A DNA stretch of 64,000 nucleotides from Candidatus Aminicenantes bacterium. Its GTDB lineage: Bacteria; Acidobacteriota; Aminicenantia; Aminicenantales; CALLJL01. Below the pieces are notes generated by a model. The model was not told the DNA's origin, made no database searches, and worked only from the letters and a program-made list of their open reading frames with translations. Of this stretch, positions 3,884 to 41,071 are shown piece by piece. The position numbers were made by a program, and so were the translations under genes. Every line of letters begins with the position of its first letter. Within the stretch, counting starts at the first letter, position 1. Location of the stretch: assembly GCA_037441905.1 (NCBI GenBank), contig JBBIRF010000003.1:39690-103689 (forward strand), in the 5' to 3' direction.

Positions 3884-3890
3884 GGGTAGA

Positions 3891-12791: not shown

Positions 12792-12800
12792 GAGGCAGCC

Positions 12801-21511: not shown

Positions 21512-21524
21512 CGGGGTTTCCTCC

Positions 21525-22382: not shown

Positions 22383-23443
22383 GGAGTCACCTCAGAAGAA
22401 AGCCGAGCCCAAAAGGCGTTGACGGGCTTGCCTTCCAGGGCATCGGCCACTGATTTTACGTTAATTCCCACCGGGCAGGTAACCAGGCAGCGGCCGCAGC
22501 CGACACAGCTTGGTTTTCCGTATTTCGAGCCATACGCCTGGAGTTTATGAGTATACCAGAGCTTGAGCCGCGAGGATTTTTTCTCCCGGAAGTTCTCGCC
22601 GCCGGCCACCTGAGAATATTCGGGCAAGGTGCAAGAATCCCATTCCCGGACGCGCAACCCCGGCTTCCCGGCCAGCCGGATTTCGTCGCGGACGTTATAA
22701 CAATTGCAGGTGGGACAGACCATCGAGCACGACCCGCAGGCTAAACAGGATGTGCCTAATTTTTCCCAGAGCGAATCACGGTACTTGAGCTCCATCAGGT
22801 CAGGCATAAACACATAGTTTATCGAGGTCTTAAATGCCCTGGCCCTGTTCTCTCGCCAGTCGATGTACTTCTGGATGTCGGCTGTCGCCAGAGTCTCCTC
22901 GAAAAACTCGGGGACAAGGCGGACGAGGTCGTCTCCCTGGCTGGAACCTATCCAGGCGAGGTAATTGTCTCCCAGGTCGGTGAAAAAGAGGTCATAGCCT
23001 TCTTCGATGATGTCGGTATGGGTAGACTGGCAGAGGCAATTTTCGTCAGGCCAGCAGGAAAGACCGAGAATAAGGGTCCGCTGCCTGGCCTTAAGATAAT
23101 AAGAATCAGGGAAAACCTGGCTAAAAATGCGGTCGAGAATGAGAAGACCGTGAATGTCGCAAGGATGAATCCCGAACAGAATCCGGTCCTTGACCCAGGA
23201 AAAATCCTCTTCATAGCCGCGGGAGGTGAATTGGAACATGGTGAAACTCGGGGGGACGAAAAGCTTCTTGGGCGGCAGAAGAGTCCGGGTCGCCTTGAGG
23301 TCGATTTTGGGAATCTCGGACGACGCTACCGGGGCAAAGCTTGTTTTGTTTTCCCTGGTCAAAGGAGCCCACAGCTCCGCTCCGTCGGAAATGGCTCCGA
23401 GGAAGGGATACAGATTTTCCTTCTTAAGCTTTAGGATTCTCAT
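22379..23443 (-). CDS. Sulfhydrogenase beta-like subunit (HydB/AsrA-like, multiple [4Fe-4S])
   Basis: CLACGSCSMVCPTCNC and CVGCGRCLVTCP motifs; operon position upstream of gamma, small, large subunits. Confidence 0.7.
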   Translation of the reverse strand: MRILKLKKENLYPFLGAISDGAELWAPLTRENKTSFAPVASSEIPKIDLKATRTLLPPKKLFVPPSFTMFQFTSRGYEEDFSWVKDRILFGIHPCDIHGLLILDRIFSQVFPDSYYLKARQRTLILGLSCWPDENCLCQSTHTDIIEEGYDLFFTDLGDNYLAWIGSSQGDDLVRLVPEFFEETLATADIQKYIDWRENRARAFKTSINYVFMPDLMELKYRDSLWEKLGTSCLACGSCSMVCPTCNCYNVRDEIRLAGKPGLRVREWDSCTLPEYSQVAGGENFREKKSSRLKLWYTHKLQAYGSKYGKPSCVGCGRCLVTCPVGINVKSVADALEGKPVNAFWARLSSEVTP

Positions 23444-23525: not shown

Positions 23526-23541
23526 TGCAAGATTTATGCCT
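23526..23541 (-). promoter_or_regulatory. Sigma-54 promoter (minus strand: AGGCAT-aaatc-TTGCA) ~80 nt upstream of hydB
   Basis: Reverse complement of 23526-23541 reads GGCATAAATCTTGCA with GG/GC spacing of the -24/-12 consensus; followed by AGGAGGT RBS and ATG. Confidence 0.55.
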
Positions 23542-27132: not shown

Positions 27133-28596
27133 TTAATCTCTTTTTATCTGTTCCACCAACTCGCGACGGCTGTTGTAAATGTTGATGATTAGAGGCATGT
27201 CACCCGGAAGGGCATGAGTGCCGCATGCATGGCAGGGGTCATACGGACGAAAAGCCATCTCCGCTAAATTGAGTAGTCCGTCGGAAACCTTGCCTTCCTT
27301 GATAAAAGCCTTGGCTGCTTTTTCGATCGACATCGTAATGGCGGCTGAATTATTCATCGTGGCGACAATCAGGTTGGCTTCAGTCACAATGCCTTTTTCG
27401 TCGGTTTTATAATGGTGGAATAACGTTCCCCGGGGAGCTTCGACTACCCCCACTCCCTCGGTGGGCGTTTCTGTCGGCACCCGCCGGATGTCCGGGCTGG
27501 TAATTTCTTTGTCTTCCAGCAGGGCTACCATAGCCTCAGCTGCCTGGAGGGCTTCGATCAGACGAGCCCAGTGGAATGCCAGGGTGTTATGAGCCGGTTT
27601 TCCTCCGAGGACCTGGTACATCCTTTCGTATTCCTGTTGCGCTAAGGGAGTGGCCATGCCGTCAGCCGCGTTTAAGCGGGCGAGAGGCGCCACTCGGTAA
27701 ATACTGGTTTCTCTTCCCTCTACGAAGCCCTTCCAGCCAATTTTTTTCAGGTAAGGAAACTTAATGTAAGTCCAGGGCTCGACGTGTTCAGCCACGTGTT
27801 CGAGATAATCAGCGGCCTTAAACTTGGCGAACTCCTTGCCTTCGGGGTCGACCACCCGGATCAGGCCGTCATAAAAATTAACCCTGTTCTTCTCATCAAC
27901 CAGCCCCATGTAATAAGTGACGAGTTTATAAGCGTCGCCGACTACCAGGTCGACGTACTCTTTGTTTTTCAAGACGACGTCGTCGAAGATTTTCAGGGCA
28001 AACTTGGCGAATTCAACCGCATACCGGGCTGTCTCTAAGAATTTTAAGCGATGTTCCTCATCCAGCCCTTTGGAAACGCCGCCCGGAAGTCCGCAGACAG
28101 GGTGAATAACCTTGCCGCCGAGGTAGTTGATGATATCGCGACATTCCCGGCGGACCCTGATTACCTGGCCGCCGATTTCCAGCCCTACTTTACCCAGGAC
28201 ACCCAGAATATTTCTCTCCGCCGCCGGCGCCTGGGGGCCGACGACAAAATCAGGACCGCCCAGGAAAAAGAAATGAAGCGAATGGTCCTCCATCATAAAG
28301 GTGTTGTAAATTAACTCTCTTATCTTGCGGGCGGTTGGGGTTGGCTCGACATGAAAAACGGCGTCAACGCATTTTGTCGAGGCCATATGATGGGCGGTGG
28401 GGCAGACACCGCAGATGCGAGGGGTAATCCGGGGCATCTCTTCCACCGGACGGCCGACCGCGAACTGCTCAAAACCGCGCAGCTCCGGCACTTGAAGAAA
28501 AGCCCTTTCGACATCCCCGGCATCATTGAGGAAAATCTCTATCTTTCCGTGACCTTCAAGCCTGGTTATCGGGTCGATGGTTATTCGCTGACTCAT
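27133..28596 (-). CDS. mvhA: Mvh/Vhu-type (group 3c) [NiFe]-hydrogenase large subunit
   Basis: PRICGVCPTAHH and DPCHACGTHA motifs, 25-aa C-terminal extension. Confidence 0.85.
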   Translation of the reverse strand: MSQRITIDPITRLEGHGKIEIFLNDAGDVERAFLQVPELRGFEQFAVGRPVEEMPRITPRICGVCPTAHHMASTKCVDAVFHVEPTPTARKIRELIYNTFMMEDHSLHFFFLGGPDFVVGPQAPAAERNILGVLGKVGLEIGGQVIRVRRECRDIINYLGGKVIHPVCGLPGGVSKGLDEEHRLKFLETARYAVEFAKFALKIFDDVVLKNKEYVDLVVGDAYKLVTYYMGLVDEKNRVNFYDGLIRVVDPEGKEFAKFKAADYLEHVAEHVEPWTYIKFPYLKKIGWKGFVEGRETSIYRVAPLARLNAADGMATPLAQQEYERMYQVLGGKPAHNTLAFHWARLIEALQAAEAMVALLEDKEITSPDIRRVPTETPTEGVGVVEAPRGTLFHHYKTDEKGIVTEANLIVATMNNSAAITMSIEKAAKAFIKEGKVSDGLLNLAEMAFRPYDPCHACGTHALPGDMPLIINIYNSRRELVEQIKRD

Positions 28597-29567
28597 TTTA
28601 TTGCCTCCAGTTTCCTGCGGCCAAGAATTGACTTGGGCAGGCTAAAACGATAGAAGGTGCCGGCGGGGTCGGCGATAGTCTGGACAACCTTTTCTATTTC
28701 CTTTTCGTCCTTAAAATCGATAAGCGAAGCTAAGGCGGAAAGGAATTTGGCGCCCTGGTCGTAGACCTGGTCGGTTGGCCCGAAGCAACCCCGGCAGGGC
28801 ATGTTGGCCGTGATGCATCTTTCTTCGCAACCAGTTCTCGTAGCCGGTCCCATGCAGATAACCCCCTGGGCCAAAAAGCACTTTTCCGGGTCAAGAAGGA
28901 CTTCCCACGGCCGCTTAAACTCTTTAATCGTTAATTTCTCCGGCTTGGTCTTATTCCGGTCGCAATCGTCGCACAGAGATTTGTTGGGAGAAAGCACAGC
29001 TCCCTTCGGAGGGAGCTTACCCTCTAAAATAGCCCCGACAGCGTTGAGGATGAGGTGGCGGGGAGGAGCACAGCCGGGGAGATAATAGTCAACATCGATA
29101 ACCTGGTCGAGGGCCCTCACGGTGTCATAAAAAGCGGGCAGGGTTAATTCTTTGCCCTCGACAACGACTTTTTCCTGAGGAACAACGCCATCAGGGTTAA
29201 CCGTGGACGGGGTGGTGAAATAGGCCCGGCGGAAAATGGCCTCTTTGTTCCAGAAATTCGCCAGCCCGGGTATTCCGCCAAGATGCGAGCAGCTTCCGAA
29301 GGCAACGACGAGCTGCGATTTCCGGCGGAGCAGATGAACCATTTCTTCCTGTTCCGATAACCTGACCGACCCGTTAATAAAGCTAACCGCGATCGAGCCG
29401 TCAGCCATGGCCTCGACATCTTTTTTCTTAAAATCGAGGGCTACAGGCCAGAAAACGATGTCAACCGCTTCGACTACCTTAAGGATGTCTTCGGCCAGGT
29501 CGACAACCGCTTCCTCGCAGCCGCCGCAAGATGCACACCAGTAAAAAGCAACTTTGGGCTTACTCAT
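28593..29567 (-). CDS. mvhG: Mvh-type [NiFe]-hydrogenase small subunit
   Basis: [12 protein letters not shown]-terminus, multiple Cys cluster motifs ([21 protein letters not shown]). Confidence 0.8.
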
Positions 29568-29994
29568 GGGAACCTCCGTTGAACTTGAAGTTTAGCGGCC
29601 CGAGGCGCCGGACCTGTTCGGTAAACTCATTAACCACCTGCTGAAACCTGGCCCCTTCTGAGGCCGAAACCCATTCGAGCCTGAACCTTTCTTTTTCGAT
29701 GCCCAGCTGTTCGAGCAACCGCGAAAGAAGTTTATAACGGCGCAAGGCTTTATAATTACCTTCTTGATAATGGCAATCTCCAGGATGGCAGCCGGAAATC
29801 AGCACGCCGTCAGCCCCCTCGCGGAATGCCTTGAGGACAAACTGGGGGTCAACCCGGCCGCTGCACATAACCCGGATGATCCTTATGTTAGGGGCATAAG
29901 TCATCCTGGCCGTGCCTGCGAGGTCGGCCCCGGTATAAGAACACCAATTACAAAGGAACCCCACTAAGCGGGGTTCAAACCCAGCTTGACTCAT
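29560..29994 (-). CDS. mvhD: MvhD-like [2Fe-2S] electron-transfer subunit
   Basis: [18 protein letters not shown]...MCSGRVD...[11 protein letters not shown] motif pattern typical of MvhD. Confidence 0.8.
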
Positions 29995-30090
29995 TATTGC
30001 CTCCTCACCAGCTAAAATCGGATGACATGTTTTTAAAATAAAGCTTTACATTATATCTAAAACGGAAACAGGTTGCTACCTCCCGTGCGA

Positions 30091-31848
30091 TTATACAAGT
30101 AATAACCCTTCGATTTCGGCCATGATTTGCCGGTCGCGAAAGTGTTTCTGCTGAGCCGCACCCGACGGACAGGCGGCGACGCATGTCCCGCATCCTTTAC
30201 ACAGGGCGTCGTTTATGACGGATATTTCCTTTTCTCGGTCAAATGTTATGGCCGTAAATGGACAGAGGCCGACACAAATCTGACAGCCGGAGCAAAGGTT
30301 TTCGTCTATCTCCGCGGTTACTGGCTCAAGGCTGAAACTGGCTTTATCAGCCAGGGCTAAAGCTTCCGCCGCCGCCCCGCCTGCCTGAGCTACCGTATCG
30401 GGAATATCCCGGGGAGCCTGGCAACATCCCGCGAGAAAGATGCCGTCGGAGAAGGTCGAGACCGGAGCTAATTTCGGGTGTCTTTCTAAGAAGAAAGTAT
30501 CCTGACTGCAGGAAATGTTGAAGGTTTTGGCCAGCTGGTTATGGTCGACTGACGGCTCAAGCCCTGTTGCCAGAATCACCATATCGACGGGAATTCGCCG
30601 GACGACGCCCAGGAGCGTATCTTCCACCCGGATGATAAGCTTCCCTTCCTCTTCCTTGGTCACGGCCAGGTCGGTAATTTCCGAAACCCGACCGCGGATA
30701 AATTTTGTTCCTTCCTCGAGCAGACGATGATAAAACTCTTCATAGCCCTTACCGAAACAACGCATGTCGATATAAAAGTCATAAATGTCAGCTTCGGTTT
30801 TTTCTTTAATCAAATGGGCGAACTTGAGGGAGTACATGCAGCAGACCCGGGAGCAATATTCGTTGTAATTTTCATCTCTTGAGCCGACACAGTGAACTAT
30901 CCCGACTGATTTCGGTTCTTCTCCGCTAGCCAGCAAGATTTTGCCGCCGGTAGGACCAGAAGCATTCACCAGATGCTCAAACTCCAGGGCTGTAATCACG
31001 TTCGGCAACCTGCCGTAGCCGTAGGCCGGGATGCGGCGGGCGTCAAACGGCTTAAAACCGGTGGCCAGGATTATCGACCCGACTTCGACCTCCACCTCCT
31101 CTTCTTTCATTTCATGGTTAACGGCCTGTCGGTCGCAAACCTTGACGCAGAGCTGGCATTTGCCCGTCTTAAAATGGATGCAGGCGGATTCATCGATAAA
31201 AGGAACCATCGGAACAGCTTGGCGGATGGGAACCCGGATGGCGGTCGATGGCCCAAGATATAGCTCGGAATGGATAACCTGGCGGCCGTACTTATCTTCA
31301 TAGGTGATTGCTCCTGTCGGGCAGAAATGGGCGCAGGCGGTACAGCCGATGCAAGCTTCTGAAGGTTCGCCAAAAGGAGGCATTACTTTCCTCTCTGTAC
31401 CGCGGTCGATAAAACTAATCGCACAGGCGCCCACCACTTGTTCGCAAGCGCGGACGCACAGACCGCAGAGGATGCATTTTTCATTTGGGTCCTTTATCGG
31501 GAAACGCGGCTTATCAATGCCCATTTCCCTGGCAAGCCTCTGGACAGGTTCAGCGGCCGGCGCCCGGGCTAGAAGCATTTCCACGTTAAGCCGCCGGCTT
31601 CTGAGGACCCGCGGGGAGGCGGTTTCAACCTCCATCCCGTCTTGAACCTTATTGTTACATGACGTAATAAGGTCTTTCCGGCCCCGCACGCTTACTTCAA
31701 CCAAACAGACGCGGCAGGCGGCATAAGGCTCGATTAATGGATGATAGCAAAGAGTCGGGATGGAAATATCTAATTTCTTGGCCGCCTGGAGGATGGTTGT
31801 CCCCTCTTCTACCTGAATTTTCTTGCCATCAATCGTAACGGTAACCAT
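30091..31848 (-). CDS. Fusion: NuoG-like N-terminus + HdrA C-terminal half (paralog of 12801-14576)
   Basis: CYHPLIEPYAACRVC 2Fe-2S, CILCGLCVRAC, CIGCTACAHFCP, HCVGSRD...YCSRVCCMYSLKFAHLIKE, C-terminal CSGCQICVGLCP / CKGCGTCVAACP. Confidence 0.7.
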   Translation of the reverse strand: MVTVTIDGKKIQVEEGTTILQAAKKLDISIPTLCYHPLIEPYAACRVCLVEVSVRGRKDLITSCNNKVQDGMEVETASPRVLRSRRLNVEMLLARAPAAEPVQRLAREMGIDKPRFPIKDPNEKCILCGLCVRACEQVVGACAISFIDRGTERKVMPPFGEPSEACIGCTACAHFCPTGAITYEDKYGRQVIHSELYLGPSTAIRVPIRQAVPMVPFIDESACIHFKTGKCQLCVKVCDRQAVNHEMKEEEVEVEVGSIILATGFKPFDARRIPAYGYGRLPNVITALEFEHLVNASGPTGGKILLASGEEPKSVGIVHCVGSRDENYNEYCSRVCCMYSLKFAHLIKEKTEADIYDFYIDMRCFGKGYEEFYHRLLEEGTKFIRGRVSEITDLAVTKEEEGKLIIRVEDTLLGVVRRIPVDMVILATGLEPSVDHNQLAKTFNISCSQDTFFLERHPKLAPVSTFSDGIFLAGCCQAPRDIPDTVAQAGGAAAEALALADKASFSLEPVTAEIDENLCSGCQICVGLCPFTAITFDREKEISVINDALCKGCGTCVAACPSGAAQQKHFRDRQIMAEIEGLLLV

Positions 31849-31859
31849 TTCTTACCTCC

Positions 31860-33686
31860 TCACTCAACTCTTACGGCGCCAAAATTGCATACGTCAAAAC
31901 AGACGCCGCACTTAATACACTTGGCCTGGTCTATCTTATGAGATTCGCCCTTAGCCCCGGTTATGGCTTCAGAGGCGCAGTTCCGCCGGCAGACGTCGCA
32001 GCCATGACCCTTTTCCAGACAGATTTGCGGGTCAATGGTGTAAACGTTAAGTTGCCGGCAGACATGAGCCGGGCATTTTTTATCACGGATATGGGTGATA
32101 TATTCATCGCGGAAGTAGCGAAGCGTCGTGAGAACCGGGTTAGGAGCGGTTTTTCCTAAACCGCAGAGCGACGCTTCTTTGACGGTCTGGGCGAGTTCTT
32201 CGAGCAAAACCAGGTCTTCTTCTGTCCCTTTGCCTTCAGTGATTCGGGTGAGGATATCGAGCATGGCCTTTGTTCCCTCCCGGCAAGGAGTGCATTTGCC
32301 GCAGCTTTCATCCTGGGTGAAAGACAGGAAGTAACGAGCGACATCCACCATGCAGGTATCTTCGTCCATGACGACCATGCCGCCCGAGCCCATCATGCTT
32401 CCCGCCTCAGTCAAGCTTTCATAATCAATCGGGAGGTCGATCTTTTCCGCCGGGATGCATCCTCCGGAAGGGCCGCCAGTTTGGACAGCTTTGAATTTTT
32501 TCCCGCCAGGAATACCGCCGCCGATGTCATAAATAATTTCGCGCAGGGTTATTCCCATCGGGACCTCAACCAGGCCGGTGTTGTTAATTTTGCCGACAAG
32601 AGAAAAAACCTTGGTACCCTTTGAGGTCGGTGTCCCGATCGAGGCGAACCATTTTCCTCCCCGGTCGATGATAACAGGGACATTAGCCCAGGTTTCAACG
32701 TTATTGATGCAGGTAGGTTTACCCCAGAGTCCCTTTTCCGCCGGATAAGGCGGCCTCGGTCTTGGTTCGCCCAAACGGCCCTCGATTGAGGCCAGCAGGG
32801 CGGTTTCCTCGCCGCAAACAAAGGCGCCGGCTCCCCGGACAACTCTGATGTCGAAGTCAAAACCGGTCCCTAAGATATCATGACCGAGCAGGCCAAGACT
32901 GCGGGCCCGGTCGAGTGCGATATAGATTCTTTTTACGGCCAGGGGATATTCATTCCGGACATAAATGAAGCCCTGGGTCGCCCCGATGGCCTTGGCCCCG
33001 ATGAGCATTCCCTCGATAACCGAATGCGGGTCGGCTTCGAGGATGCTTCGGTCCATGAAAGCGCCCGGGTCGCCTTCGTCGCCGTTGCAGACGAGATATT
33101 TTTCTCCGTTGGGCGAAGGTGAATTCCGGACGAGTTGCCACTTTAGGCCCGTGGGAAAACCGGCACCGCCCCGGCCCCGCAGCCCGGAAACGGTGATTTC
33201 CTGGATTATTTCTTCCGGCGTCATCTGGGTCAGAGCCTTAACCAGGGCTTTATACCCGTCACGGGCTATGTAATCTTCGATTTTTTCCGGGTCGATGAGG
33301 CCGCGGTTGCGCAGGGCGACGAGCACCTGTTTCTTGAAAAAGTTGATTTCGCTCAAAACCGGCACGGGTGTTTTTTCTTCGGGCGGCTGGTACATGAACT
33401 TCTTCACCGGCCGGCCTTTAAGGAGATGTTCTTCCACCAGCAGCGGCACATCTTTCACGCTCAGGGTTTGGTAAAAGATGTTGCCGGGCTGGACGACAAG
33501 CAGCGGGCCTCGTTCACAGAACCCGTTGCAACCGGTAGTCACCACTTTAACTTCGTTTTCCAGCCCCTGGCGCTTAATTTCTTTTTCCAGAGCTTCTTTA
33601 ATTTCGAAGGCGTGGTTGGAGACACACCCCGTCCCGGCGCAGACCATTAAGTGGGTCCGGTATAGCTTTTCTTTTGCTTCCGCCAT
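31860..33686 (-). CDS. NuoF-like NADH-binding FMN/[4Fe-4S] subunit with N-terminal Trx-like Fdx domain
   Basis: GRGGAGFPTGLKWQ, ESCGKCTPCREG, C-terminal Cys clusters. Confidence 0.8.
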   Translation of the reverse strand: MAEAKEKLYRTHLMVCAGTGCVSNHAFEIKEALEKEIKRQGLENEVKVVTTGCNGFCERGPLLVVQPGNIFYQTLSVKDVPLLVEEHLLKGRPVKKFMYQPPEEKTPVPVLSEINFFKKQVLVALRNRGLIDPEKIEDYIARDGYKALVKALTQMTPEEIIQEITVSGLRGRGGAGFPTGLKWQLVRNSPSPNGEKYLVCNGDEGDPGAFMDRSILEADPHSVIEGMLIGAKAIGATQGFIYVRNEYPLAVKRIYIALDRARSLGLLGHDILGTGFDFDIRVVRGAGAFVCGEETALLASIEGRLGEPRPRPPYPAEKGLWGKPTCINNVETWANVPVIIDRGGKWFASIGTPTSKGTKVFSLVGKINNTGLVEVPMGITLREIIYDIGGGIPGGKKFKAVQTGGPSGGCIPAEKIDLPIDYESLTEAGSMMGSGGMVVMDEDTCMVDVARYFLSFTQDESCGKCTPCREGTKAMLDILTRITEGKGTEEDLVLLEELAQTVKEASLCGLGKTAPNPVLTTLRYFRDEYITHIRDKKCPAHVCRQLNVYTIDPQICLEKGHGCDVCRRNCASEAITGAKGESHKIDQAKCIKCGVCFDVCNFGAVRVE

Positions 33687-33699
33687 TTTTCACTCCTTC

Positions 33700-34089
33700 C
33701 TACAGGTCGGTCTTTTCGCTGCCAATACCCAGGGCATAGGCAGTGACGATTTGTCCCCCGAGGACATGCTTCTCGAAGATCTCCTGGGCCTTTTTCTCAG
33801 TCAGGTCGACGTACTTAACCGGAGCCTGGCCGGCCAGCTCGACCGTTGCCATCGGCTCGCGGCTGCAGAGGCCGGCACATCCGGATGTCGTCAGAAGAAC
33901 GTCCGTCGTTCCTCGCTTTTCCACTTCCCGGAGAAAAGCATTCATGATATTTCTGGCGCCGGCCGCAATCCCGCAAGTGCCCATATGGACAATGATTTTG
34001 GCCTTGAATTGGCCCTGCTCGCGGATAAAAATCGACTTTCTGGCCTCTTGCCTTATTTTTTCGAGGTCTTCAAGCGTGAGCTTTGGCAT
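33700..34089 (-). CDS. Stand-alone thioredoxin-like [2Fe-2S] ferredoxin (homolog of the N-terminal domain of the NuoF-like protein)
   Basis: IIVHMGTCGIAAGA...SGCAGLCSREP, aligns to residues 1-120 of 10917-12791 product. Confidence 0.6.
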   Translation of the reverse strand: MPKLTLEDLEKIRQEARKSIFIREQGQFKAKIIVHMGTCGIAAGARNIMNAFLREVEKRGTTDVLLTTSGCAGLCSREPMATVELAGQAPVKYVDLTEKKAQEIFEKHVLGGQIVTAYALGIGSEKTDL

Positions 34090-34101
34090 GGCTTCCTCTC
34101 C

Positions 34102-34557
34102 TCATTTCTTGTATTTTTTGATGATGCCCGGGACCTTCGTTTGAGTAACTTTTCCGTGGACTTCCTCGCCAACCATAACTACGGGCGCAAGGCCACAGCA
34201 CCCCAGGCAACGGACAGCATCCAGGCTGAAAAGCCGGTCTTCGCTCGTCTCGCCCGCCTTTATGCCGAGTTCCCGCTCGAATTTCTCCAGAACCAGCTGG
34301 GCTCCGCGGACATGACAGGCGGTCCCGAGACACACATGGATGGGATGTTTGCCCTTAGGTTTGAGGCTAAAAGCCCGGAAAAAAGTAGCTAAGCTAAGAA
34401 TGCGACTAAGGGGGACATCCATCTCCCGGGAAATTTGCTCCAGGGCTTCCCGCGGCAGGTAGGAATATTCTTCCTGCAGGTCCTGGAGCATGGCGATGAG
34501 GGAACTCTCATCGCGAGCGTATTTTTCCAGGATTTCAGAGACTTTGGCTTCGACCAT
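34102..34557 (-). CDS. NuoE-like [2Fe-2S] subunit
   Basis: CLGTACHVRGA...CLGCCGLAPV. Confidence 0.75.
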   Translation of the reverse strand: MVEAKVSEILEKYARDESSLIAMLQDLQEEYSYLPREALEQISREMDVPLSRILSLATFFRAFSLKPKGKHPIHVCLGTACHVRGAQLVLEKFERELGIKAGETSEDRLFSLDAVRCLGCCGLAPVVMVGEEVHGKVTQTKVPGIIKKYKK

Positions 34558-35101
34558 GTTCCCTCCTTAAAAAAGATAACCTATGGTCAATATAATTCCT
34601 GATGGCGTTTAAAACCTCAGGATGATTGAGTGCTATTCCGGGGTAAGTTTCTTTAAACTGCCGCGTGTTGAACTCAAATTCTGCCCCGTCGCGGCGATGA
34701 TAATAGACCCATTCTATTTCCGGATGCCCGGCTATCAAGGTAACCAGGGTTAAGGCCAAGTCACCCATCGGCTTGAGGTCGATGTGGCTCAAACGAAACG
34801 ACGCCCGTACTTTTGTTCCTTTTTGCGGGGCTGAAGTCAGCGTCAGGTCGCCGCCCGCCGCTCGACAGGCTTCTTGAAGGAAGGGCAAACCGAGCCCGAT
34901 TCTTCTTGTCTGGCGCGTGGAATAAAAAGGGTCGAGGGCGCGACGGCATTCTTCTTCGCTCATCCCTCGCCCGTTATCCTCCACCTCGAGAAGAAGAAGG
35001 TCGGCAGCGGCGTCTTCGATAATAGTAATCTTTATGCGTGAGGCGCCTGCATTCACCGAATTCTCGGCGATGTCCAGAAGGTGAAGCGATAAGTCTTCCA
35101 T
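34535..35101 (-). CDS. Histidine-kinase-like ATPase (HATPase_c only; start likely ATG 35101 MEDLSL...)
   Basis: LLEVEDNGRGM and GLGLPF G1/G2-box-like motifs, no HisKA/receiver. Confidence 0.55.
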   Translation of the reverse strand: MEDLSLHLLDIAENSVNAGASRIKITIIEDAAADLLLLEVEDNGRGMSEEECRRALDPFYSTRQTRRIGLGLPFLQEACRAAGGDLTLTSAPQKGTKVRASFRLSHIDLKPMGDLALTLVTLIAGHPEIEWVYYHRRDGAEFEFNTRQFKETYPGIALNHPEVLNAIRNYIDHRLSFLRREHGRSQSL

Positions 35102-35108
35102 GGCTATC

Positions 35109-35840
35109 TCAATTGAGAATCCTTCTGCCTTCTTGTTGCCGCAGGCTGAGAACGATTTCTTCAAAGGTTAAGTCAGTCATCAAGAAAGAAGTGGTGGCGG
35201 CGCCGATTTCTTTGAGGTCATGGGCGTCGGAAAAAGTTACCAGGGGATATGGTTCAGGGAATTTTTTTCTGGCCTCCGCCAGCGATAGACGGGATGAGAT
35301 TTCCAGCCCGTCCAGGGCGAGAGAAGCAGGAATAAACCCAAGCTGGCTGATGAGCGAAAACGCTTCCCGGTCGACATGGGAGGCTATGGCCAGACCCCCG
35401 AGCTGATGGATGAGATTGACTGTTTCTTCCAGGCTGAGGGTCGTCGCGCCGATCAGCAGGCGGTCGTTGAAGCGGAGGACTTCGCCTTCCTCGTTCACCA
35501 CTACCTGGAGTCCGTAAAGTTCCGGGTTGTTTTCTCCCGGAAGATGTTCGTAGATTTTCTCCTGGAGCTCGAAAGCGGCCTCAACCCGGCCAAAAAGGGC
35601 TAACAGGTGCACTTCTTCCTTCGTCGTCACTTCGATTCCCGGGATCACCGGAAGCGAGAATTTCTCGCCCGCCGCGACCAGGGCTGGAATGTTTTCAGCC
35701 GAGTTGTGGTCGCAGATGCCGATTATTTCGATATCCTTATCCCTGGCCATTTTAACAATGCCCCGGGGGGACAGGTTCAGCTCGCCGCAGGGCGAAAGGC
35801 AAGTGTGGATGTGAAGGTCAGTTTTCACCGCTCGCAGCAT
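35109..35840 (-). CDS. PHP-domain (polymerase/histidinol phosphatase) metal-dependent phosphoesterase
   Basis: DLHIHTCLSPCG...ICDHNS PHP His/Asp motifs. Confidence 0.65.
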   Translation of the reverse strand: MLRAVKTDLHIHTCLSPCGELNLSPRGIVKMARDKDIEIIGICDHNSAENIPALVAAGEKFSLPVIPGIEVTTKEEVHLLALFGRVEAAFELQEKIYEHLPGENNPELYGLQVVVNEEGEVLRFNDRLLIGATTLSLEETVNLIHQLGGLAIASHVDREAFSLISQLGFIPASLALDGLEISSRLSLAEARKKFPEPYPLVTFSDAHDLKEIGAATTSFLMTDLTFEEIVLSLRQQEGRRILN

Positions 35841-35843
35841 CTC

Positions 35844-36185
35844 CTATTCTTTTTCCATGAGCAATTGATACAACCGGCCCGAGATAACGAAGGAGTTATC
35901 CAGGGTTCCTAAAAGGGGAATTTTTTCTTCTTCGGCCTTGCGTTTTGTTTCCGCTTCCGGCTGGCGGTCATGAACAATGATGATGCCTGCCAGGTCTTTA
36001 AGCCGCGCCACGGCAATAATATTGGGATGCGTCTGGAGAGTTATCCAGAGATTGCCCTCCCGGGCATGGGCGATCACATCGCTCAAGAGGTCGGAGGTAT
36101 AACCGCCGGTCACTTCTGTTTCCAGCTGGCCGGCTTCAGTCAAGACTTTGAGGCCGAGATGAGAAATTATTTCTTTTAAAATCAT
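35844..36185 (-). CDS. DRTGG-domain protein
   Basis: Short ~113 aa; LLSDVIAHAREGNLWITLQTH pattern resembling DRTGG fold; paralog of 38016-38378. Confidence 0.5.
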   Translation of the reverse strand: MILKEIISHLGLKVLTEAGQLETEVTGGYTSDLLSDVIAHAREGNLWITLQTHPNIIAVARLKDLAGIIIVHDRQPEAETKRKAEEEKIPLLGTLDNSFVISGRLYQLLMEKE

Positions 36186-37558
36186 GCTTCCTCTTCCTTT
36201 TTGTTTTTGGCCGAACTGATTTCAGCCTGACCCCTCCGGCAACCGGTTTTTTCCACGAGCTCGATGATTTCTTTGGCCAGAGCGGTTATTTTTTGCGGCC
36301 AGAGAAAAACGCAATCAGCCAGCTCGACCTCGCCTTGAATCAGGTCCTCAGCGAATGCCTGGCAGGAGGGTGAACCGCAGGCGCCGCAGTCAATCTGAGG
36401 CAGCTTTTCATAGATGGCCTCTTTTTGTTTTTTCTTCTGGATTGCTTTGCCGATGTCTTCATCCAGAGGGGCAAGAGGTCGGGGCTCAAGCTGGCCCTCG
36501 ATGAAATAATATTTTTGTTCGTAGCGTCGCCTCACATCCCGGATGTCCGGGCAGGCTTTAATTTTTTCGTATTCGAGAGTTTCAATTAGCTTTATTATTT
36601 TGTTATATGAGCTGTATGTATTTTCGACGGTTAACGAACCGCCGACACATCCGTGGGTACAAGAATAGGCCTCGATAAAGTCGATGTTGCGGATTTTGCC
36701 TTTTTCGATGTCGTCGAACACTTTGATCAATTCAGCCAGGGCAGAAACAGCGATCGAATTCCGCAGCCGGAGTGTCCGGCTCATCCCACCGACGACCGCC
36801 CACCCGATACCGAGAATGCAAATGCTTTCGAGAGCTCGGCGCTCAGGCTCGGTTTCTTCCAGACTCTCCATGGCGGAAAGGAGCGGGCCATAAACATCGG
36901 CGATCGAAAGAGCCCCGTCAAGATGGCTCCGGCCTTTTTCTGCCGGCTGTTTGATCGAGATCATCTTTACAGGGCAGGGAGTTATGTAGAAAGTGCCGAT
37001 ATCCTTTTCCGGGATTTCCAGTTGCTTCGACTTTTTCCTTTTTATTTCCCTGGCAGCGATTTCTCGCGGGGTGTCGATCGGAATGATGTGGTCGATGAGG
37101 TCAGGGTATTTGACCTGAATGAGGCGAACCACCGTGGGGCAGGCGTTCGAAATCAGGGGCCTTGCGCCGTTATAGTTACGCAGAAATTCTTGAATCGCAA
37201 AACTTACTTCTCCGCAGGTGTTTGCCAGGTCGACGGCCTCGTCGAACCCGAGTTTTTTTAAACCGGCTAATATCTTGGCCGGGAGGATTTCGCGGCCAAA
37301 CTGGGCATAGAGCGCGGGAGAAGGGACGGCGATGGTGTAGCGGAACCGGCTGAGCTCGCCGAACGGGTCGGTAAGGGGGATGATAGCCCCGTTGGGGCAG
37401 ACATTAATGCACTCGCCGCAGTCGATGCACCTTTCCTCGATCATCCGGGCTTTGCCTTTACGGACGCGAATTGCCTGGGTTGGACAAACGCGCAGACAAC
37501 GCATCCGTCCCTCGCAGCGCTCCTGGTCGAAGCGAATCGAATGATAATACTGGTTCAT
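36182..37558 (-). CDS. [FeFe]-hydrogenase-like Fe-S protein (H-cluster-domain homolog with altered L1 motif) + C-terminal CxxCxxxxC Fe-S motif; putative sensory/regulatory
   Basis: N-terminal 2x[4Fe-4S] (CLRVCPTQAI, CIDCGECINVCP); SNACPTV (vs TSCCP), TPCPVKM (vs MPCxxK), EAYSCTHGCVGGS (vs ExMACxxGCxxGG); C-terminal CGACGSPSCQAF..ADCVF. Confidence 0.6.
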   Translation of the reverse strand: MNQYYHSIRFDQERCEGRMRCLRVCPTQAIRVRKGKARMIEERCIDCGECINVCPNGAIIPLTDPFGELSRFRYTIAVPSPALYAQFGREILPAKILAGLKKLGFDEAVDLANTCGEVSFAIQEFLRNYNGARPLISNACPTVVRLIQVKYPDLIDHIIPIDTPREIAAREIKRKKSKQLEIPEKDIGTFYITPCPVKMISIKQPAEKGRSHLDGALSIADVYGPLLSAMESLEETEPERRALESICILGIGWAVVGGMSRTLRLRNSIAVSALAELIKVFDDIEKGKIRNIDFIEAYSCTHGCVGGSLTVENTYSSYNKIIKLIETLEYEKIKACPDIRDVRRRYEQKYYFIEGQLEPRPLAPLDEDIGKAIQKKKQKEAIYEKLPQIDCGACGSPSCQAFAEDLIQGEVELADCVFLWPQKITALAKEIIELVEKTGCRRGQAEISSAKNKKEEEA

Positions 37559-38019
37559 CGCACCTTCTTCTGGTTAAGAAAAATCGTGATTCTGAGGAGG
37601 GTGCCTTTGCCCACTTCGGAGGTTATCTCAAACCGGTCGGCGTTTTTCTTGATGTTGGGCAAACCCATCCCGGCGCCAAACCCCATTTCGCGCATCTCTG
37701 GAGTGGCGGTCGAATAACCCTCCTGCATGGCCAGTTCGATATCAGGAATCCCCTCGCCTTCGTCTTCCACCCAAAAATTTACTTCGCCCGGGGTCACCTC
37801 TAAAATAAAAGTCCCGTGCCGGGCATACATCACAACGTTCATTTCAGCCTCGTATGCCGCGATTGCCGCCCGGCGAACTACGGCTGGTTCTATCCCCAGC
37901 TCCTTAAGGATTTCTTTAATCTGGGTTGAAACATGGCCGGCATGATGGAAATCGCCGCCCTGAATAGGAAAGGATTCGACAAAGCAGCTTTCTCGTCCGT
38001 TTGCCGGCAGGTTAGTCAT
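37555..38019 (-). CDS. Histidine-kinase-like ATPase / anti-sigma-factor-type Ser kinase fold (RsbW/SpoIIAB-like)
   Basis: EDEGEGIP and GFGAGMGLP nucleotide-binding box-like motifs, 154 aa, no HisKA. Confidence 0.55.
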   Translation of the reverse strand: MTNLPANGRESCFVESFPIQGGDFHHAGHVSTQIKEILKELGIEPAVVRRAAIAAYEAEMNVVMYARHGTFILEVTPGEVNFWVEDEGEGIPDIELAMQEGYSTATPEMREMGFGAGMGLPNIKKNADRFEITSEVGKGTLLRITIFLNQKKVR

Positions 38020-38378
38020 CGGTCGACTTCTTCATCCTTGACGCTTTTCAGACCCCGGCCGAAGAGAAGGCCGCAAGCCTGATACATCAGAAATTCGGTG
38101 GATAAAAGCGGGATGCCCTTTTTCTTGGCCAGGGCAATTCCTTCCTGGTCGGGTATTTTGCCCCGGACATAAAGAATTGCTTTGGCTTCGATGATATCGG
38201 CTGTCCTGACGCTCTGAACGTTGGCTAAGCCAGTGATCAGGAGCATGCCTGGTTTACCAAGAGCTAAGACGTCGCTCATCAGGTCAGAGGCTCCCGCCCT
38301 TTCTACCTCATGGTCGAGGTATTCTTCTCCGCAGATAACTCTGGACCGGAGCAACTCCTTTATTTCGCTGAGTTTCAT
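38016..38378 (-). CDS. DRTGG-domain protein
   Basis: LLITGLANVQSVRTADIIEA motif (DRTGG-like), ~120 aa. Confidence 0.55.
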   Translation of the reverse strand: MKLSEIKELLRSRVICGEEYLDHEVERAGASDLMSDVLALGKPGMLLITGLANVQSVRTADIIEAKAILYVRGKIPDQEGIALAKKKGIPLLSTEFLMYQACGLLFGRGLKSVKDEEVDR

Positions 38379-38379
38379 T

Positions 38380-39231
38380 TCAGTGTTCTTTTTCCACGAC
38401 TTTTATAATCATATCTCCTTTGCGGATAACCCTCTCGGAAGGCGTGATAGTTGCGGGACAATTTTCCCAGCAAGCACCACACCCGCTGCATTTGCTGATG
38501 TCGACATACCGCGGTTTTTTTCTTATTTTTACCTTGAAGTTGCCGACAAACCCGGAGACTTCAGCCACTTCGCTCCAGGTCATCAGGACGATATTCGGGT
38601 GTTTACCCACCTCGCTCATCTTGGGCGTAAGAATGCAGGCGGCGCAATCGAGCGTCGGAAAAGTCTTATCGAGATGGGACATATGACCGCCTATCGAGGG
38701 TTCCTTCTCCACCAGGTAGACCTTTTTGCCAGAATTAGCGTAAGTAAGGGCGGCGTGGATGCCGGCAATGCCGCCGCCAACGATGAGGACTTCTGGCCTT
38801 ACGGGTACTTCTTTCTTGAGCAGCGGGTCATGCAGCGCCACTCGCCGGACAGCCGCCGAAACCATAGCTTTGGCCTTTTTGGTGGCTTTTTCCGGGTCTT
38901 CCGTCACCCAGGAGACTTGCTCCCGAATGTTGGCCATCTGGAAAAAGAAGGGGTTTAAGCCACCTTCGTTTGTCACCGTGCGAAAAGTTGGTTCGTGCAT
39001 TAAGGGAGAACAGGAGGCGACGACAACTCGATTGAGGTTATAGTCCTTGATCGCCTGGCGGATGAGCTCCTGACCAGGGTCTGAGCACATGAACTTATAT
39101 TCCTTGGCCACCGCCACGTTATCGAGCTGGGCGGCAAAAGCCACTACTTCGCTCACGTTGACTTTGCCCGCAATGTTAGTGCCGCAATGGCAAATAAAAA
39201 CGCCGATTCTTGGCTCACCATTCTGGTTCAT
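38380..39231 (-). CDS. HdrA-like flavoprotein N-terminal fragment (paralog of 9531-10373)
   Basis: IGVFICHCGTNI..SCSP, LIVGGGIAGIHAAL..VYLVEKEPSIGGHM, CSGCGACWENCP; ATGA overlap with hdrB. Confidence 0.7.
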   Translation of the reverse strand: MNQNGEPRIGVFICHCGTNIAGKVNVSEVVAFAAQLDNVAVAKEYKFMCSDPGQELIRQAIKDYNLNRVVVASCSPLMHEPTFRTVTNEGGLNPFFFQMANIREQVSWVTEDPEKATKKAKAMVSAAVRRVALHDPLLKKEVPVRPEVLIVGGGIAGIHAALTYANSGKKVYLVEKEPSIGGHMSHLDKTFPTLDCAACILTPKMSEVGKHPNIVLMTWSEVAEVSGFVGNFKVKIRKKPRYVDISKCSGCGACWENCPATITPSERVIRKGDMIIKVVEKEH

Positions 39232-40115
39232 CTGGCTCCTCCCATGCTAATTTTTTGCCAGAAAGGCTTAAGGTCGATAATTGACCGGCTAAAGCCCAGG
39301 TCTTCCTTAGGCAGACCAAACGCCAGGCCCATCAACTGACTGAAGTACAAGACTGGCATCATTACGTCCTCACCGTAAGCTTTAACGATCTTGTCTTGAA
39401 GAATTTCCAGGTTGAACTGACAGAGAGGACATATGGTGACAATAGCGTCAGCTCCTCGACGCCTGGCTTCTTTAAGCAGGATAAAATTAAGCCTTTTGCC
39501 TACTTCTTCGATTGTTCCTGTCAGCGACCCACCACAGCAGCGAGTCTTAGCTGAATAAGGAACCGGTTCAGCCCCGATGGCTTCCATCAGGCTGTCGAGC
39601 GTCGTCGGATAATCCGGGTCGTCGAAGTCTGTAAAAGGCCGGACCAGCTGACACCCGTAATAGCAGGCCACTTTCAACCCCGTAAGCTTATTGCGAACCT
39701 TCTCCCGCACCCGGTCGAGGCCGATGTCTTTCACCAGAACTTCGAGCGGATGTTTAACTTCAACGCCACCGTGGTAGGCGCAGCCGGCTTGTTCCAAGGC
39801 ATGATTGATCTTTTTTGCTTTCTCGGTCTCAGCCTTCAAGACTTTATTTGCCTTTTTCAGGGTAAGATAGCATCCGGCGCAGGGGGCTACGATGTCGCTG
39901 GCTTTCTTTTCGGCCAGGCTAAGGTTGCGACCACAGATGGCCGTTGCCAGCGTCTCGTCGACCGAAAAATAGGCGGTCGCCCCGCAGCAGTTCCAGTCCT
40001 CTAGCTCGTCGAGCGGCAGACCCACCTCTTTAAAGACCGGAAGGATTGATTCTTCATATTGCTTGGAGTTACCTTTAAGAGAGCACCCGGGATAATAAAT
40101 ATAATTATTATTCAT
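39228..40115 (-). CDS. hdrB: HdrB-like (two CCG domains)
   Basis: NCCGATAY and CCGGSLT motifs. Confidence 0.8.
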   Translation of the reverse strand: MNNNYIYYPGCSLKGNSKQYEESILPVFKEVGLPLDELEDWNCCGATAYFSVDETLATAICGRNLSLAEKKASDIVAPCAGCYLTLKKANKVLKAETEKAKKINHALEQAGCAYHGGVEVKHPLEVLVKDIGLDRVREKVRNKLTGLKVACYYGCQLVRPFTDFDDPDYPTTLDSLMEAIGAEPVPYSAKTRCCGGSLTGTIEEVGKRLNFILLKEARRRGADAIVTICPLCQFNLEILQDKIVKAYGEDVMMPVLYFSQLMGLAFGLPKEDLGFSRSIIDLKPFWQKISMGGAR

Positions 40116-40693
40116 CAGGCCGCCTCCTTGATTGCCTTCAACAGGGCCTTTAATTGCTTCCTGTCCTTAATGGCTTCTCGCTTAAAACTCATCCGGCCGG
40201 TCTTGAGCAGCTTCAACCCGAGAGGAGTCATTCTTAGCAGGCCCATCGGGTTGCGTGATTTCAGGTAAAGCCGCAGGATAAGCCAGAGTTCGGAATTACG
40301 GCCGTAGTTCCGGATAAGCTGGCTCATTTCCTTATCCAGGACAGGGATGGCCAGGCCCTGAGGGTATACCTTTTCCTCGATAGCTTTTCTCTTGAGAGCA
40401 TACATTACTTCCGTAATCTCGATTTTCGCCGGGCAACGTACCTGGCAGGTGTAACAGGAGGAACAGAGCCAGATGGTGAAGCTCCGTAATGCCTCGTCCT
40501 TGAACCCGTTCTTAACCAGGCCGATAATTTTCCGCGGGGGGTAATCCATATAAACCGACATCGGGCACGAGGAGCTGCAGGTGCCGCACTGGATACAACG
40601 GTCAAGGTCTTCAGCCCCCGACATTTCCTTAATTTCTTCGAGGAAGGTCTTATCTAACTCTTCCTCGTATTTAACTTTGCGCTGGATATCCAT
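40115..40693 (-). CDS. hdrC: HdrC-like (2x[4Fe-4S])
   Basis: CIQCGTCSSSCP, CSSCYTCQVRCP. Confidence 0.8.
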   Translation of the reverse strand: MDIQRKVKYEEELDKTFLEEIKEMSGAEDLDRCIQCGTCSSSCPMSVYMDYPPRKIIGLVKNGFKDEALRSFTIWLCSSCYTCQVRCPAKIEITEVMYALKRKAIEEKVYPQGLAIPVLDKEMSQLIRNYGRNSELWLILRLYLKSRNPMGLLRMTPLGLKLLKTGRMSFKREAIKDRKQLKALLKAIKEAA

Positions 40694-40970: not shown

Positions 40971-41071
40971 AAATGGAATTTTAGTTGTAAGTTAATTGTC
41001 TTGTCAACAGAAAAAATGAAAATATTTCATTCGTTGATTTTTCGGGCGAATCTTAACTATAATGGCGCCGC

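Follow-up and report, generated by a model that had tools for sequence, protein, structure and literature searches.

The group 3c [NiFe]-hydrogenase complex MvhADG-HdrABC (structures of the PDB 5ODC, 8RVU and 9SW2 type) and the class II benzoyl-CoA reductase (BCRII) both contain an HdrA-type flavin adenine dinucleotide (FAD) subunit. In Mvh-Hdr (PMC9012536), Vhu-Hdr-Fwd (PMC13518236) and BCRII (bioRxiv 10.64898/2026.04.10.717634) the ferredoxin domain inserted in HdrA is the low-potential outlet, and the high-potential electron goes to HdrBC, or to BamD in BCRII (same sources). Here we describe a block of 16 genes that encodes the MvhADG-HdrABC subunits together with a Bfu module for nicotinamide adenine dinucleotide, NAD(H), and ferredoxin, and a regulatory cassette. 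The block lies on a 64,000-nucleotide stretch (the window) of contig JBBIRF010000003.1 from a Candidatus Aminicenantes bacterium (assembly GCA_037441905.1); all coordinates are window positions. The simplest description of its sequence is that a bfuC-bfuB-bfuA(N) block was inserted into hdrA, in frame and within the inserted ferredoxin domain, in a bacterial hdrCBA-mvhDGA operon. We put at about 0.7 the probability that the products form one predicted three-port complex acting on H2, NAD(H)/ferredoxin and a disulfide.

All six subunit types of MvhADG-HdrABC are present in the bacterial order hdrCBA-mvhDGA, and HdrA and MvhA are about 40–60% identical to the solved archaeal proteins. HdrA keeps its FAD domain and its N- and C-terminal domains; MvhD, the two CCG motifs of HdrB, the 2x[4Fe-4S] of HdrC, and the [NiFe] motifs L1 and L2 are kept too. 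Unlike the described complexes, the window HdrA is in two pieces, with the BfuCBA module and usually the cassette inside the inserted ferredoxin domain, and the host is a bacterium with no known coenzyme M or coenzyme B.

In the classification of the Bfu family, Bam-Bfu is the sole type containing an HdrA module, and NiFe-Bfu is type 3, with the hydrogenase docked directly (PMC9304861). The class II benzoyl-CoA reductase Bam[(BC)2DEFGHI]2 is the Bam-Bfu case. As in the window, a Bfu-type module (BamGHI) is placed in series with an HdrA-type FAD subunit (BamE), an MvhD-like subunit (BamF) and an HdrBC-like subunit (BamD), and its BfuA is also of type 2 (PMC9304861; bioRxiv 10.64898/2026.04.10.717634). 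The differences are several. The window has a [NiFe] hydrogenase in place of the tungsten subunits BamBC. No AFOR domain is found by Pfam among the open reading frames (ORFs) of the block and its scanned flanks, and an AOR context appears only at a distant relative, P0134. The window HdrA is of a split monomer type, whereas BamE is a fused double HdrA. In place of BamD there are two separate subunits, HdrC and an HdrB in which both CCG motifs are intact. BfuA is joined covalently at the inserted (low-potential) domain, whereas BamI is a free subunit that feeds the C-terminal (input) domain.

The NiFe-HydABCSL enzyme of Acetomicrobium mobile (PDB 7T2R, type 3 Bfu) has a nearly identical BfuB architecture and a related large subunit, and uses the substrates predicted for the window complex: H2, NAD(H) and ferredoxin. 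Its small subunit docks directly on a long type-3 BfuA with the His-ligated A3 cluster, whereas the window BfuA is of type 2 and ends after about 195 residues, with MvhD, HdrA and HdrBC between the hydrogenase and the Bfu core.

In HdrA9-11 of ANME-1 a 500-residue NfnB-like module sits in the inserted ferredoxin domain (PMC9012536). These HdrA-NfnB fusions interrupt the domain at the same site as the window genes, but with a single NfnB/GltD-like domain in one polypeptide rather than a three-gene Bfu core that splits the gene. The occurrence of both NfnB-like and Bfu insertions at one site suggests that the inserted domain behaves as a socket for NAD(P)H-handling modules. Bacterial HdrA proteins of about 1100 residues with an NfnB/GltD-like module (Pfam Fer4_20 and Pyr_redox_2) at this same point are encoded in two of the relatives' loci (L003, 13620-17024; L056, 105-3434). 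Two more loci (L078, L079) have similar genes as judged by length and alignment pattern. In L003 the operon of the 1100-residue HdrA takes the place of mvhDGA directly after the split-fusion gene.

The sequence-only reading of this block had not recognized its layout as a described one. That judgment needs dividing. A literature search found no description of an Mvh-Hdr operon with an inserted Bfu core, an absence that is no proof of absence, and metagenomic papers that mention Aminicenantes or related lineages label such genes plainly as group 3c Mvh/Hdr. Serial coupling of Bfu and HdrA, on the other hand, is already known from Bam-Bfu, where it was proposed in PMC9304861 and shown structurally in bioRxiv 10.64898/2026.04.10.717634, in another topology and with no hydrogenase. 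Each module, like the principle of stacking them, has precedent; for their combination, for the insertion at gene level and for the probable topology none was found.

The split hdrA gene and the Bfu genes between its parts

The block consists of 16 tightly packed, co-directional genes that run in an unbroken chain on the minus strand from 40693 to 27133 (ORF listing and Pfam scans). Genes were assigned by Pfam scans, PDB sequence matches and NCBIfam models. The gene content, order, co-orientation and coordinates agree exactly with those of the sequence-only reading, including the linkage to a complete Mvh-type [NiFe] hydrogenase, of which mvhD, mvhG and mvhA all lie in the block. Spacing between genes ranges from -23 to +13 nucleotides; the sole exception is a gap of 96 nucleotides ahead of mvhD. 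The G+C content of the window is about 52%.

The first part of the split gene, hdrA-N, encodes three segments of HdrA: its N-terminal Fe-S domain, the beginning of the TrxR-like FAD domain, in which the Cys197-type motif DCAAC lies, and, from the inserted ferredoxin domain, the first Cys motif, CxxCxxCxxxCP. In an alignment with unsplit bacterial HdrA, the product ends just past this last motif, with a short conserved tail, R-V-h-x-x-G-D-x-h-h-K. The same alignment shows HdrA resuming in the downstream fusion protein, with a segment of the inserted domain and its second Cys motif. PDB sequence matches pair residues 163-583 of the fusion with HdrA 251-653 (4e-120) and residues 3-193 with 9mqx_A (3.5e-40); residues 1 to about 195 constitute a type-2 BfuA-like module with one [2Fe-2S] and two [4Fe-4S] clusters and without the His-ligated cluster. 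The NCBIfam HdrA2 model, which has 777 positions, is tiled by HdrA-N (1-258), fusion residues 197-581 (264-639) and MvhD (647-774). All HdrA domains are present yet spread over two genes, and BfuC, BfuB and the N-terminal BfuA segment interrupt the inserted ferredoxin domain.

Unsplit hdrC-hdrB-hdrA-mvhD-mvhG-mvhA operons with an HdrA of 650-675 residues occur in more distant loci (Calditrichota, Chloroflexota, Dehalococcoidia). These operons, the alignment break between the two Cys motifs, and the matches to solved structures are the grounds for describing the locus as an insertion. What had earlier been termed a split HdrA is indeed a split gene, but it is better read as a bfuCBA block inserted in hdrA of an ordinary hdrCBA-mvhDGA operon. 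In P0134 the HdrA-N sequence, the BfuA module and the C-terminal part of HdrA are found in one polypeptide. The contig of P0134 (JGI 3300042731) has a Bam-like context, in which the gene adjoins those of an AOR-family tungsten enzyme, a Fer4_11 protein, short-chain dehydrogenases/reductases and a second HdrA-like protein.

The cysteines round the junction were compared in a paired alignment of 14 concatenates of HdrA-N and fusion protein (56-83% identity). All 16 Cys of the four motifs and the four [2Fe-2S] cysteines are invariant, from which four [4Fe-4S] clusters and one [2Fe-2S] cluster are predicted to bridge both modules.

A split gene and a fusion might also come from misassembly or from a disrupted pseudogene, and an assembly artefact at the fusion point had been named beforehand as one of the outcomes that would undo the proposal. 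Nothing speaks for it directly, although the in-frame TAG in a neighbouring group 3b hydrogenase gene (below) shows that this genome or assembly has lesions. The best 120 matches to the fusion protein are all full length (584-593 residues, 77-91% identity) and come from many independent assemblies, the named ones being Candidatus Aminicenantes. Identity of the ORF across several phyla is 53-92% with invariant cofactor ligands, and the window itself has two diverged copies. With more than 100 full-length homologues, conservation in several phyla and invariant ligands, this explanation is rejected as exceedingly improbable, and the fusion gene is taken as genuine.

The Bfu genes had been named after complex I (NuoEF, NuoG), and this naming is corrected here. 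NuoF aligns over its full length with HydB of the bifurcating NiFe-hydrogenase (7t2r_B, 8e-261), with every cluster cysteine aligned. It has two further domains, one with a [2Fe-2S] cluster at the N-terminus and one, ferredoxin-binding, with 2x[4Fe-4S] at the C-terminus. Non-bifurcating NuoF is without the cysteines and clusters of both (PMC9304861). The features that define BfuB in the Bfu family (PMC9304861) are all found: the flavin mononucleotide (FMN)/NAD site, the B1 cluster, the N-terminal [2Fe-2S] and the C-terminal 2x[4Fe-4S]. A [2Fe-2S] NuoE/HydC-like gene lies beside bfuB, as expected of bfuC (PMC9304861). Type 2 BfuA has one [2Fe-2S] and two [4Fe-4S] clusters and is without the A3 and A5 clusters (PMC9304861); in agreement with this type, fusion residues 3-192 are colinear with BfuA of Wor-Bfu (9mqx_A), and the His-cluster insert of 7t2r_A is absent. 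By these sequence features the nuoE and nuoF genes are assigned to a true Bfu/HydBC-type bifurcating core and not to a complex I module. An extra [2Fe-2S] ferredoxin encoded between nuoE and nuoF is paralogous to the N-terminal domain of NuoF, and in the fetched loci it always co-occurs with the cassette.

HdrB has two complete CCG motifs of the form C-x31-37-CC-x34-C-x2-C (cysteines 11/43/44/79/82 and 155/193/194/229/232). NCBIfam HdrC models match HdrC at 1e-21 to 1e-23, under their equivalog cut-offs. MvhA has the L1 motif RICGVCPTAHH, the L2 motif DPCHACGTH and a C-terminal extension, and its best PDB matches are Mvh/Vhu A subunits. As expected for group 3c, MvhD and MvhG are encoded with the large subunit (FlpD, 2.6e-58; Oxidored_q6; VhuD and VhuG models).

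Gene order in relatives

Relatives of the fusion gene were sought in one genome per species. The scan found 194, of which 80 loci were fetched, and 18 window proteins were mapped on these by tblastn and blastp. An exhaustive profile search of cluster representatives found additional families with the same architecture. The complete 16-gene order is present in about 40 Aminicenantes species. It also occurs in Vicinamibacterales (Vicinamibacteria) and other Acidobacteriota, in one Eiseniibacteriota genome (69% identity) and in one Ignavibacteria genome (53%). A form without the cassette, hdrC-hdrB-hdrA-N-nuoE-nuoF-fusion-mvhDGA, is found in Chloroflexota-labelled and other genomes.

About 53 split-fusion genes have room downstream, and in 48 of these cases, across phyla, the very next gene is mvhD. 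The gap between the two is about 85-105 nucleotides in most Aminicenantes and 9-54 elsewhere. They overlap by 4 nucleotides in the Chloroflexota-labelled loci L054 and L056 and in a third, the Chloroflexi-labelled L061; L061 stands outside the 48, its fusion ORF being cut by the contig end. In locus L081 the fusion protein and MvhD are a single chain of 706 residues (P0140). Two genes upstream, before nuoF, HdrA-N and NuoE form a single chain of 423 residues. The conceptual chain of this locus is HdrA(1-265)-NuoE / NuoF / BfuA-HdrA(266-650)-MvhD, with breaks only on the two flanks of NuoF. The L081 cluster (1-9928, GCA_028279585.1) has no hydrogenase and reads ETF-alpha, hdrC, hdrB, HdrA-N~NuoE, nuoF, fusion~MvhD and a 630-residue CCG protein. 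The ETF beside it recalls the ETF that is the high-potential acceptor of BCRII.

The two L081 fusions and the synteny across phyla make a single physical complex plausible. The earlier proposal of one assembly that couples H2, NAD(H) and a disulfide/ferredoxin site holds to that extent, while its expectation of a single transcript is weakened by a conserved promoter before mvhD (below).

The predicted complex and its electron route

The predicted enzyme would be a cytoplasmic multi-subunit complex, MvhAGD-HdrABC with HdrA opened at the inserted ferredoxin domain and a Bfu module spliced in, consisting of BfuC (NuoE), the extra [2Fe-2S] ferredoxin, BfuB (NuoF) and the type-2 BfuA domain. MvhA would oxidize H2, and the electrons would pass through MvhG and MvhD to the FAD of HdrA, which would bifurcate them. 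The high-potential electron would take the route by way of HdrC to HdrB, where it would pass to the two non-cubane clusters and reduce a disulfide. The low-potential exit would be the composite inserted ferredoxin domain, to which HdrA-N contributes its last Cys motif (Cys248-258) and the fusion protein its third (Cys223-238). From this exit the electron would bypass free ferredoxin and be carried by the BfuA clusters to BfuBC, which would split electrons between two acceptors, NAD+ at the FMN and, at the C-terminal domain of BfuB, ferredoxin. The net reaction, reversible in principle, might be 4 H2 + 2 RSSR' + NAD+ + 2 Fd(ox) -> 4 thiols + NADH + 2 Fd(red), where Fd is ferredoxin. In BCRII the N-terminal bundle of the NuoE homologue touches BfuA, a contact which suggests that the HdrA-N~NuoE tether of L081, too, puts the Bfu module beside the inserted ferredoxin domain. 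For this specific wiring, in which the low-potential electron of HdrA would pass through BfuA into BfuBC, the chances seem somewhat short of even.

Several points weigh against this scheme, in its wiring or in its unity. The NCBIfam equivalog cut-offs for HdrA, HdrB and HdrC (CoB-CoM) are not reached. AlphaFold2 models yielded no reliable inter-domain geometry, Cys-motif pairing or module wiring: the concatenated HdrA-N and fusion protein modelled without an alignment gave a predicted local distance difference test score (pLDDT) of 37, and the fusion protein alone, with 43 homologues, a pLDDT of 62.7 and a predicted template modelling score of 0.40, the BfuA part being confident and residues 190-280 disordered. 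Split forms are not cleanly monophyletic in a neighbour-joining tree of the C-terminal part of HdrA, a tree too crude to separate a single origin from repeated ones. A covalent tether is no proof of adjacent clusters, and passing an electron of about -500 mV or lower into an NAD+-reducing core looks wasteful unless it is tightly gated. The sole solved complex with both Bfu and HdrA, BCRII, has Bfu as input, feeding the C-terminal ferredoxin domain and the MvhD-like adaptor and not placed on the inserted domain (bioRxiv 10.64898/2026.04.10.717634). A TATAAT promoter before mvhD in Aminicenantes means that co-transcription of the whole block is not assured, and loci L003, L023 and L043, as well as a first copy of the Hdr-Bfu genes in the window, are without Mvh, which suggests that the Hdr-Bfu part can work without a hydrogenase.

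The last two points, together with the 96-nucleotide gap before mvhD against at most 13 nucleotides elsewhere in the block, would also be expected if the block encoded two neighbouring enzymes that are linked for regulation. One would be an Hdr-Bfu NADH/ferredoxin:disulfide oxidoreductase like that of the first copy, with a function akin to Flx-Hdr, the other a separately transcribed MvhADG with another partner or with facultative docking. Alignment of the spacer between the fusion gene and mvhD in 27 orthologues reveals that TATAAT is kept in at least 80% and that a -35-like element and the ribosome-binding site are also kept, while the flanking bases vary. This pattern points to a conserved sigma-70-type internal promoter before mvhD in Aminicenantes, from which mvhDGA can probably be transcribed alone. 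The terminator scan found only a weak hairpin after the fusion gene. There is precedent for exchangeable partners, as HdrABC of methanogens takes alternative donors, hydrogenase or formate dehydrogenase (PMC9012536). Against two separate enzymes stand the position of mvhD after the fusion gene in about 90% of the sampled loci across phyla, the 4-nucleotide gene overlap in Chloroflexota-labelled loci and the single polypeptide of fusion protein and MvhD in L081. The ancestral unsplit operon, moreover, is hdrCBA-mvhDGA, and no further HdrA partner is seen in the window besides the first copy. Because the association rests on synteny, on gene overlap in other phyla and on the fusion~MvhD polypeptide, the promoter weakens the expectation of a single transcript and not that of the association, and the two-enzyme arrangement appears improbable.

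A different arrangement within one complex deserves more weight, although it too is unlikely. In a Bam-like or HydABCSL-like wiring the BfuA clusters would join the C-terminal ferredoxin domain and the MvhD side of HdrA, possibly across a dimer. The enzyme would then be mainly a [NiFe] analogue of HydABC (NADH + Fd(red) <-> H2) with HdrA as scaffold and wire; one mid-potential node would join NADH with reduced ferredoxin (confurcation) to H2, disulfide reduction by the FAD/HdrBC arm would be a side branch, and the inserted domain would still serve free ferredoxin. BCRII follows such a route, from BamGH-BamI to the C-terminal ferredoxin domain of BamE, to BamF (MvhD-like) and to the bifurcating FAD. 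The first copy and L081 have Bfu and no hydrogenase, so Bfu must there be input or output itself. MvhA is as close to the NiFe-HydL subunit 7t2r_D (1.5e-116) as to Mvh/Vhu, and a cassette with a group D HydS typically belongs to HydABC operons that serve H2 evolution. The fermentative metabolism generally ascribed to Aminicenantes also counts in favour of this wiring. However, both tethers, that of BfuA to the second motif of the inserted domain and that of the HdrA-N tail to NuoE in L081, are at the inserted domain and not at the C-terminal one, and the insertion site is common to the NfnB-type insertions. The window BfuA, being of type 2, lacks the cluster on which the NiFe small subunit of HydABCSL docks (PMC9304861), and the two complete CCG motifs of HdrB suggest that the disulfide arm is essential and not vestigial. 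The outlet wiring, with the inserted domain feeding BfuBC, is kept as the preferred one.

Regulatory cassette, gene list and wider setting

Six genes, from 38378 to 34535, lie between hdrA-N and nuoE, where a regulatory cassette had been placed by the earlier reading (Table 1). Its third gene encodes a putative sensor with the H-cluster motifs SNACPTV, TPCPVK and EAYSCTHGCVGG. The H-cluster cysteines are present; Cys299 of the proton relay is replaced by Ala in SNACPTV, and Met353 by Thr in TPCPVK. The C-terminus has a Cx2Cx4Cx16C motif at residue 391 (CGACGSPSC-x16-C), and Pfam finds no PAS domain in the protein. In each of the features given for them (PMC8163306), the sensor agrees with the group D (M2e) putative sensory [FeFe]-hydrogenases. 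Genes of this group lie upstream of the genes of trimeric bifurcating HydABC, beside histidine-kinase-like ATPases (PMC8163306). HydABC operons with a group D sensor, such as that of Thermoanaerobacter mathranii HydS (PMC8163306), share with the window the sensor architecture, the flanking GHKL ATPases and the position upstream of NuoE/NuoF-type genes; they differ in the downstream partner, which in the window is the BfuA-HdrA fusion and then a [NiFe] hydrogenase, not [FeFe] HydA.

Where the cassette is present in the relatives, it lies between hdrA-N and nuoE, together with the extra ferredoxin gene. Its genes 1 and 2 are conserved in position, gene 1 in about 40 loci, and a homologue search with the sensor protein returned close Aminicenantes relatives only. 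Cassette-type genes adjoin HydABC operons. The most likely origin of the cassette is a HydABC-type operon, from which it would have come along with the Bfu genes, and it probably adjusts expression or activity to H2 or to the redox state. The start of cassette gene 6 is set at the Met at codon 22 of the listed ORF, the residue at which alignments with the orthologues begin.

Table 1. Features of the 16-gene block, in the order of the minus strand; positions are those of the window.
Feature	Position	Strand	Product and evidence
Sigma-70-like promoter candidate TTGACA-18-TAAAAT	40978..41007	-	About 285 nucleotides upstream of hdrC; 11/12 consensus positions, consensus match only
hdrC	40115..40693	-	192 residues, 2x[4Fe-4S] subunit; Pfam Fer4_8 and Fer4_17; two CxxCxxCxxxCP motifs
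hdrB	39228..40115	-	295 residues, disulfide-reductase catalytic subunit; Pfam CCG x2, 1.3e-29
hdrA-N	38380..39231	-	283 residues; residues 6-261 match HdrA 11-267 of 8rvu_a, 9e-99
Cassette gene 1, DRTGG-like	38016..38378	-	120 residues; Pfam: weak PucR match alone; paralogue of the DRTGG protein at 35844-36185
Cassette gene 2, GHKL ATPase HATPase_c_2	37555..38019	-	154 residues, anti-sigma-kinase-like; Pfam 7e-09
Cassette gene 3, group D (M2e-type) putative sensory [FeFe]-hydrogenase homologue	36182..37558	-	458 residues; Pfam Fe_hyd_lg_C, FeS, N-terminal 2x[4Fe-4S]
Cassette gene 4, DRTGG domain protein	35844..36185	-	113 residues; Pfam DRTGG, 1e-05
Cassette gene 5, PHP phosphoesterase	35109..35840	-	243 residues; Pfam PHP
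Cassette gene 6, GHKL ATPase HATPase_c	34535..35101	-	188 residues counted from Met22 of the listed ORF; Pfam 3.9e-17
nuoE / bfuC (HydC-like)	34102..34557	-	[2Fe-2S] thioredoxin-like subunit; full-length Pfam 2Fe-2S_thioredx, 6e-50; NCBIfam HoxE/NuoE
Extra thioredoxin-like [2Fe-2S] ferredoxin	33700..34089	-	129 residues; Pfam; similar to NuoF residues 9-108
nuoF / bfuB (HydB-like)	31860..33686	-	FMN/NAD(H) subunit; residues 8-605 match 7t2r_B, 8e-261
BfuA(NuoG-N)/HdrA-C fusion	30091..31848	-	585 residues; starts like NuoG/HydA, ends like HdrA
Spacer, probable internal mvhDGA promoter	29995..30090	-	96 nucleotides; conserved TATAAT, -35-like element, GGAGG ribosome-binding site
mvhD	29560..29994	-	[2Fe-2S] adaptor from hydrogenase to HdrA; Pfam FlpD, 2.6e-58; NCBIfam VhuD
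mvhG	28593..29567	-	[NiFe]-hydrogenase small subunit; Pfam Oxidored_q6; NCBIfam VhuG, 1.6e-64
mvhA	27133..28596	-	Group 3c-type [NiFe]-hydrogenase large subunit; PDB Mvh/Vhu A subunits, 1e-115 to 1e-118

A 62-residue ORF at 30005-30193 has no family match in Pfam and is taken as spurious. The terminator scan also picked out, at the start of mvhD (29956-29976, minus strand), a 9-bp G+C-rich hairpin, GAACCCCGC-TTA-GTGGGGTTC, within the first 40 coding nucleotides.

The block is the second of two copies in the window, as had been recognized before. The first, at 8012-14576 on the plus strand, comprises hdrC, hdrB, hdrA-N, nuoE, nuoF and a 591-residue fusion, without the cassette, the separate ferredoxin or Mvh, and its products are 41-62% identical to those of the second copy. 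The contig of the closest relative holds both copies, spaced as in the window (L001, L064). The N-terminal thioredoxin-like domain of NuoF from the first copy (10917-12791, plus strand) is 47% identical to the free ferredoxin of the second (33700-34089, minus strand), which suggests domain fission, fusion or duplication between the copies. A perfect sigma-54 -24/-12 box, TGGCACCTTTTTTGCT, is found at 7903-7918 (plus strand), about 95 nucleotides upstream of the first hdrC, and the nearest relative, L064, has a TGGCAT-N5-TTGCT box at the equivalent place (5098-5113). From the boxes in the window and in L064, the first copy is probably sigma-54-dependent. For the second copy no sigma-54 promoter was found; sites with two mismatches occur at chance frequency only. 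After mvhA follow genes for an sCache-HAMP histidine kinase and a sigma-54 response regulator (27045-23703), which possibly control the first copy.

Downstream of this kinase/regulator pair are the genes of a group 3b-type (sulfhydrogenase-like) [NiFe] hydrogenase (19374-23443, minus strand) in the order beta (Fer4_22), gamma (FAD/NAD), delta and alpha, with a two-mismatch sigma-54-like box nearby at 23526-23541. Its large-subunit gene (19374-20732, minus strand) has an in-frame TAG at codon 261 (19950-19952), where the nearest relative has Tyr (RSRYQGKSY). The TAG is either a nonsense mutation, in which case the gene is a pseudogene, or a sequencing error. The adjoining regions 15055-16204 and 16204-18741 (both on the minus strand) hold genes for a HypB-like GTPase and a HycI-type maturation protease and, beside them, for a hybrid kinase/receiver and two single-domain response regulators, with a perfect sigma-54 box at 18600-18615 (minus strand).

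Strict anaerobes owe their life near the thermodynamic limit to electron bifurcation. The predicted complex would be the second case of Bfu on HdrA after class II benzoyl-CoA reductase, whose structure was reported in 2026, and it would be wired differently, with H2 as a substrate. The lineages with the cluster (Aminicenantes and further Acidobacteriota, Chloroflexota, Ignavibacteria) abound in anoxic sediments and aquifers. A metagenomic survey in which these genes count simply as "group 3c Mvh/Hdr" may misjudge how the pools of H2, NADH and ferredoxin are linked. The cluster is also an expressible target for asking whether the low-potential electrons of HdrA pass to another bifurcating core. 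The fullest form of the proposal is offered tentatively, as its odds are clearly below even: a widespread enzyme of sediments and the subsurface in which two different bifurcation engines would work in series on one [NiFe] hydrogenase, the HdrA outlet feeding BfuBC, under the supervision of a sensory [FeFe]-hydrogenase. If the series arrangement is true, its topology is the opposite of that in benzoyl-CoA reductase, where Bfu is the input, and the cost of making both NADH and reduced ferredoxin from H2 would be borne by disulfide reduction, perhaps even where the H2 pressure is very low; alternatively, the process would run in the other direction.

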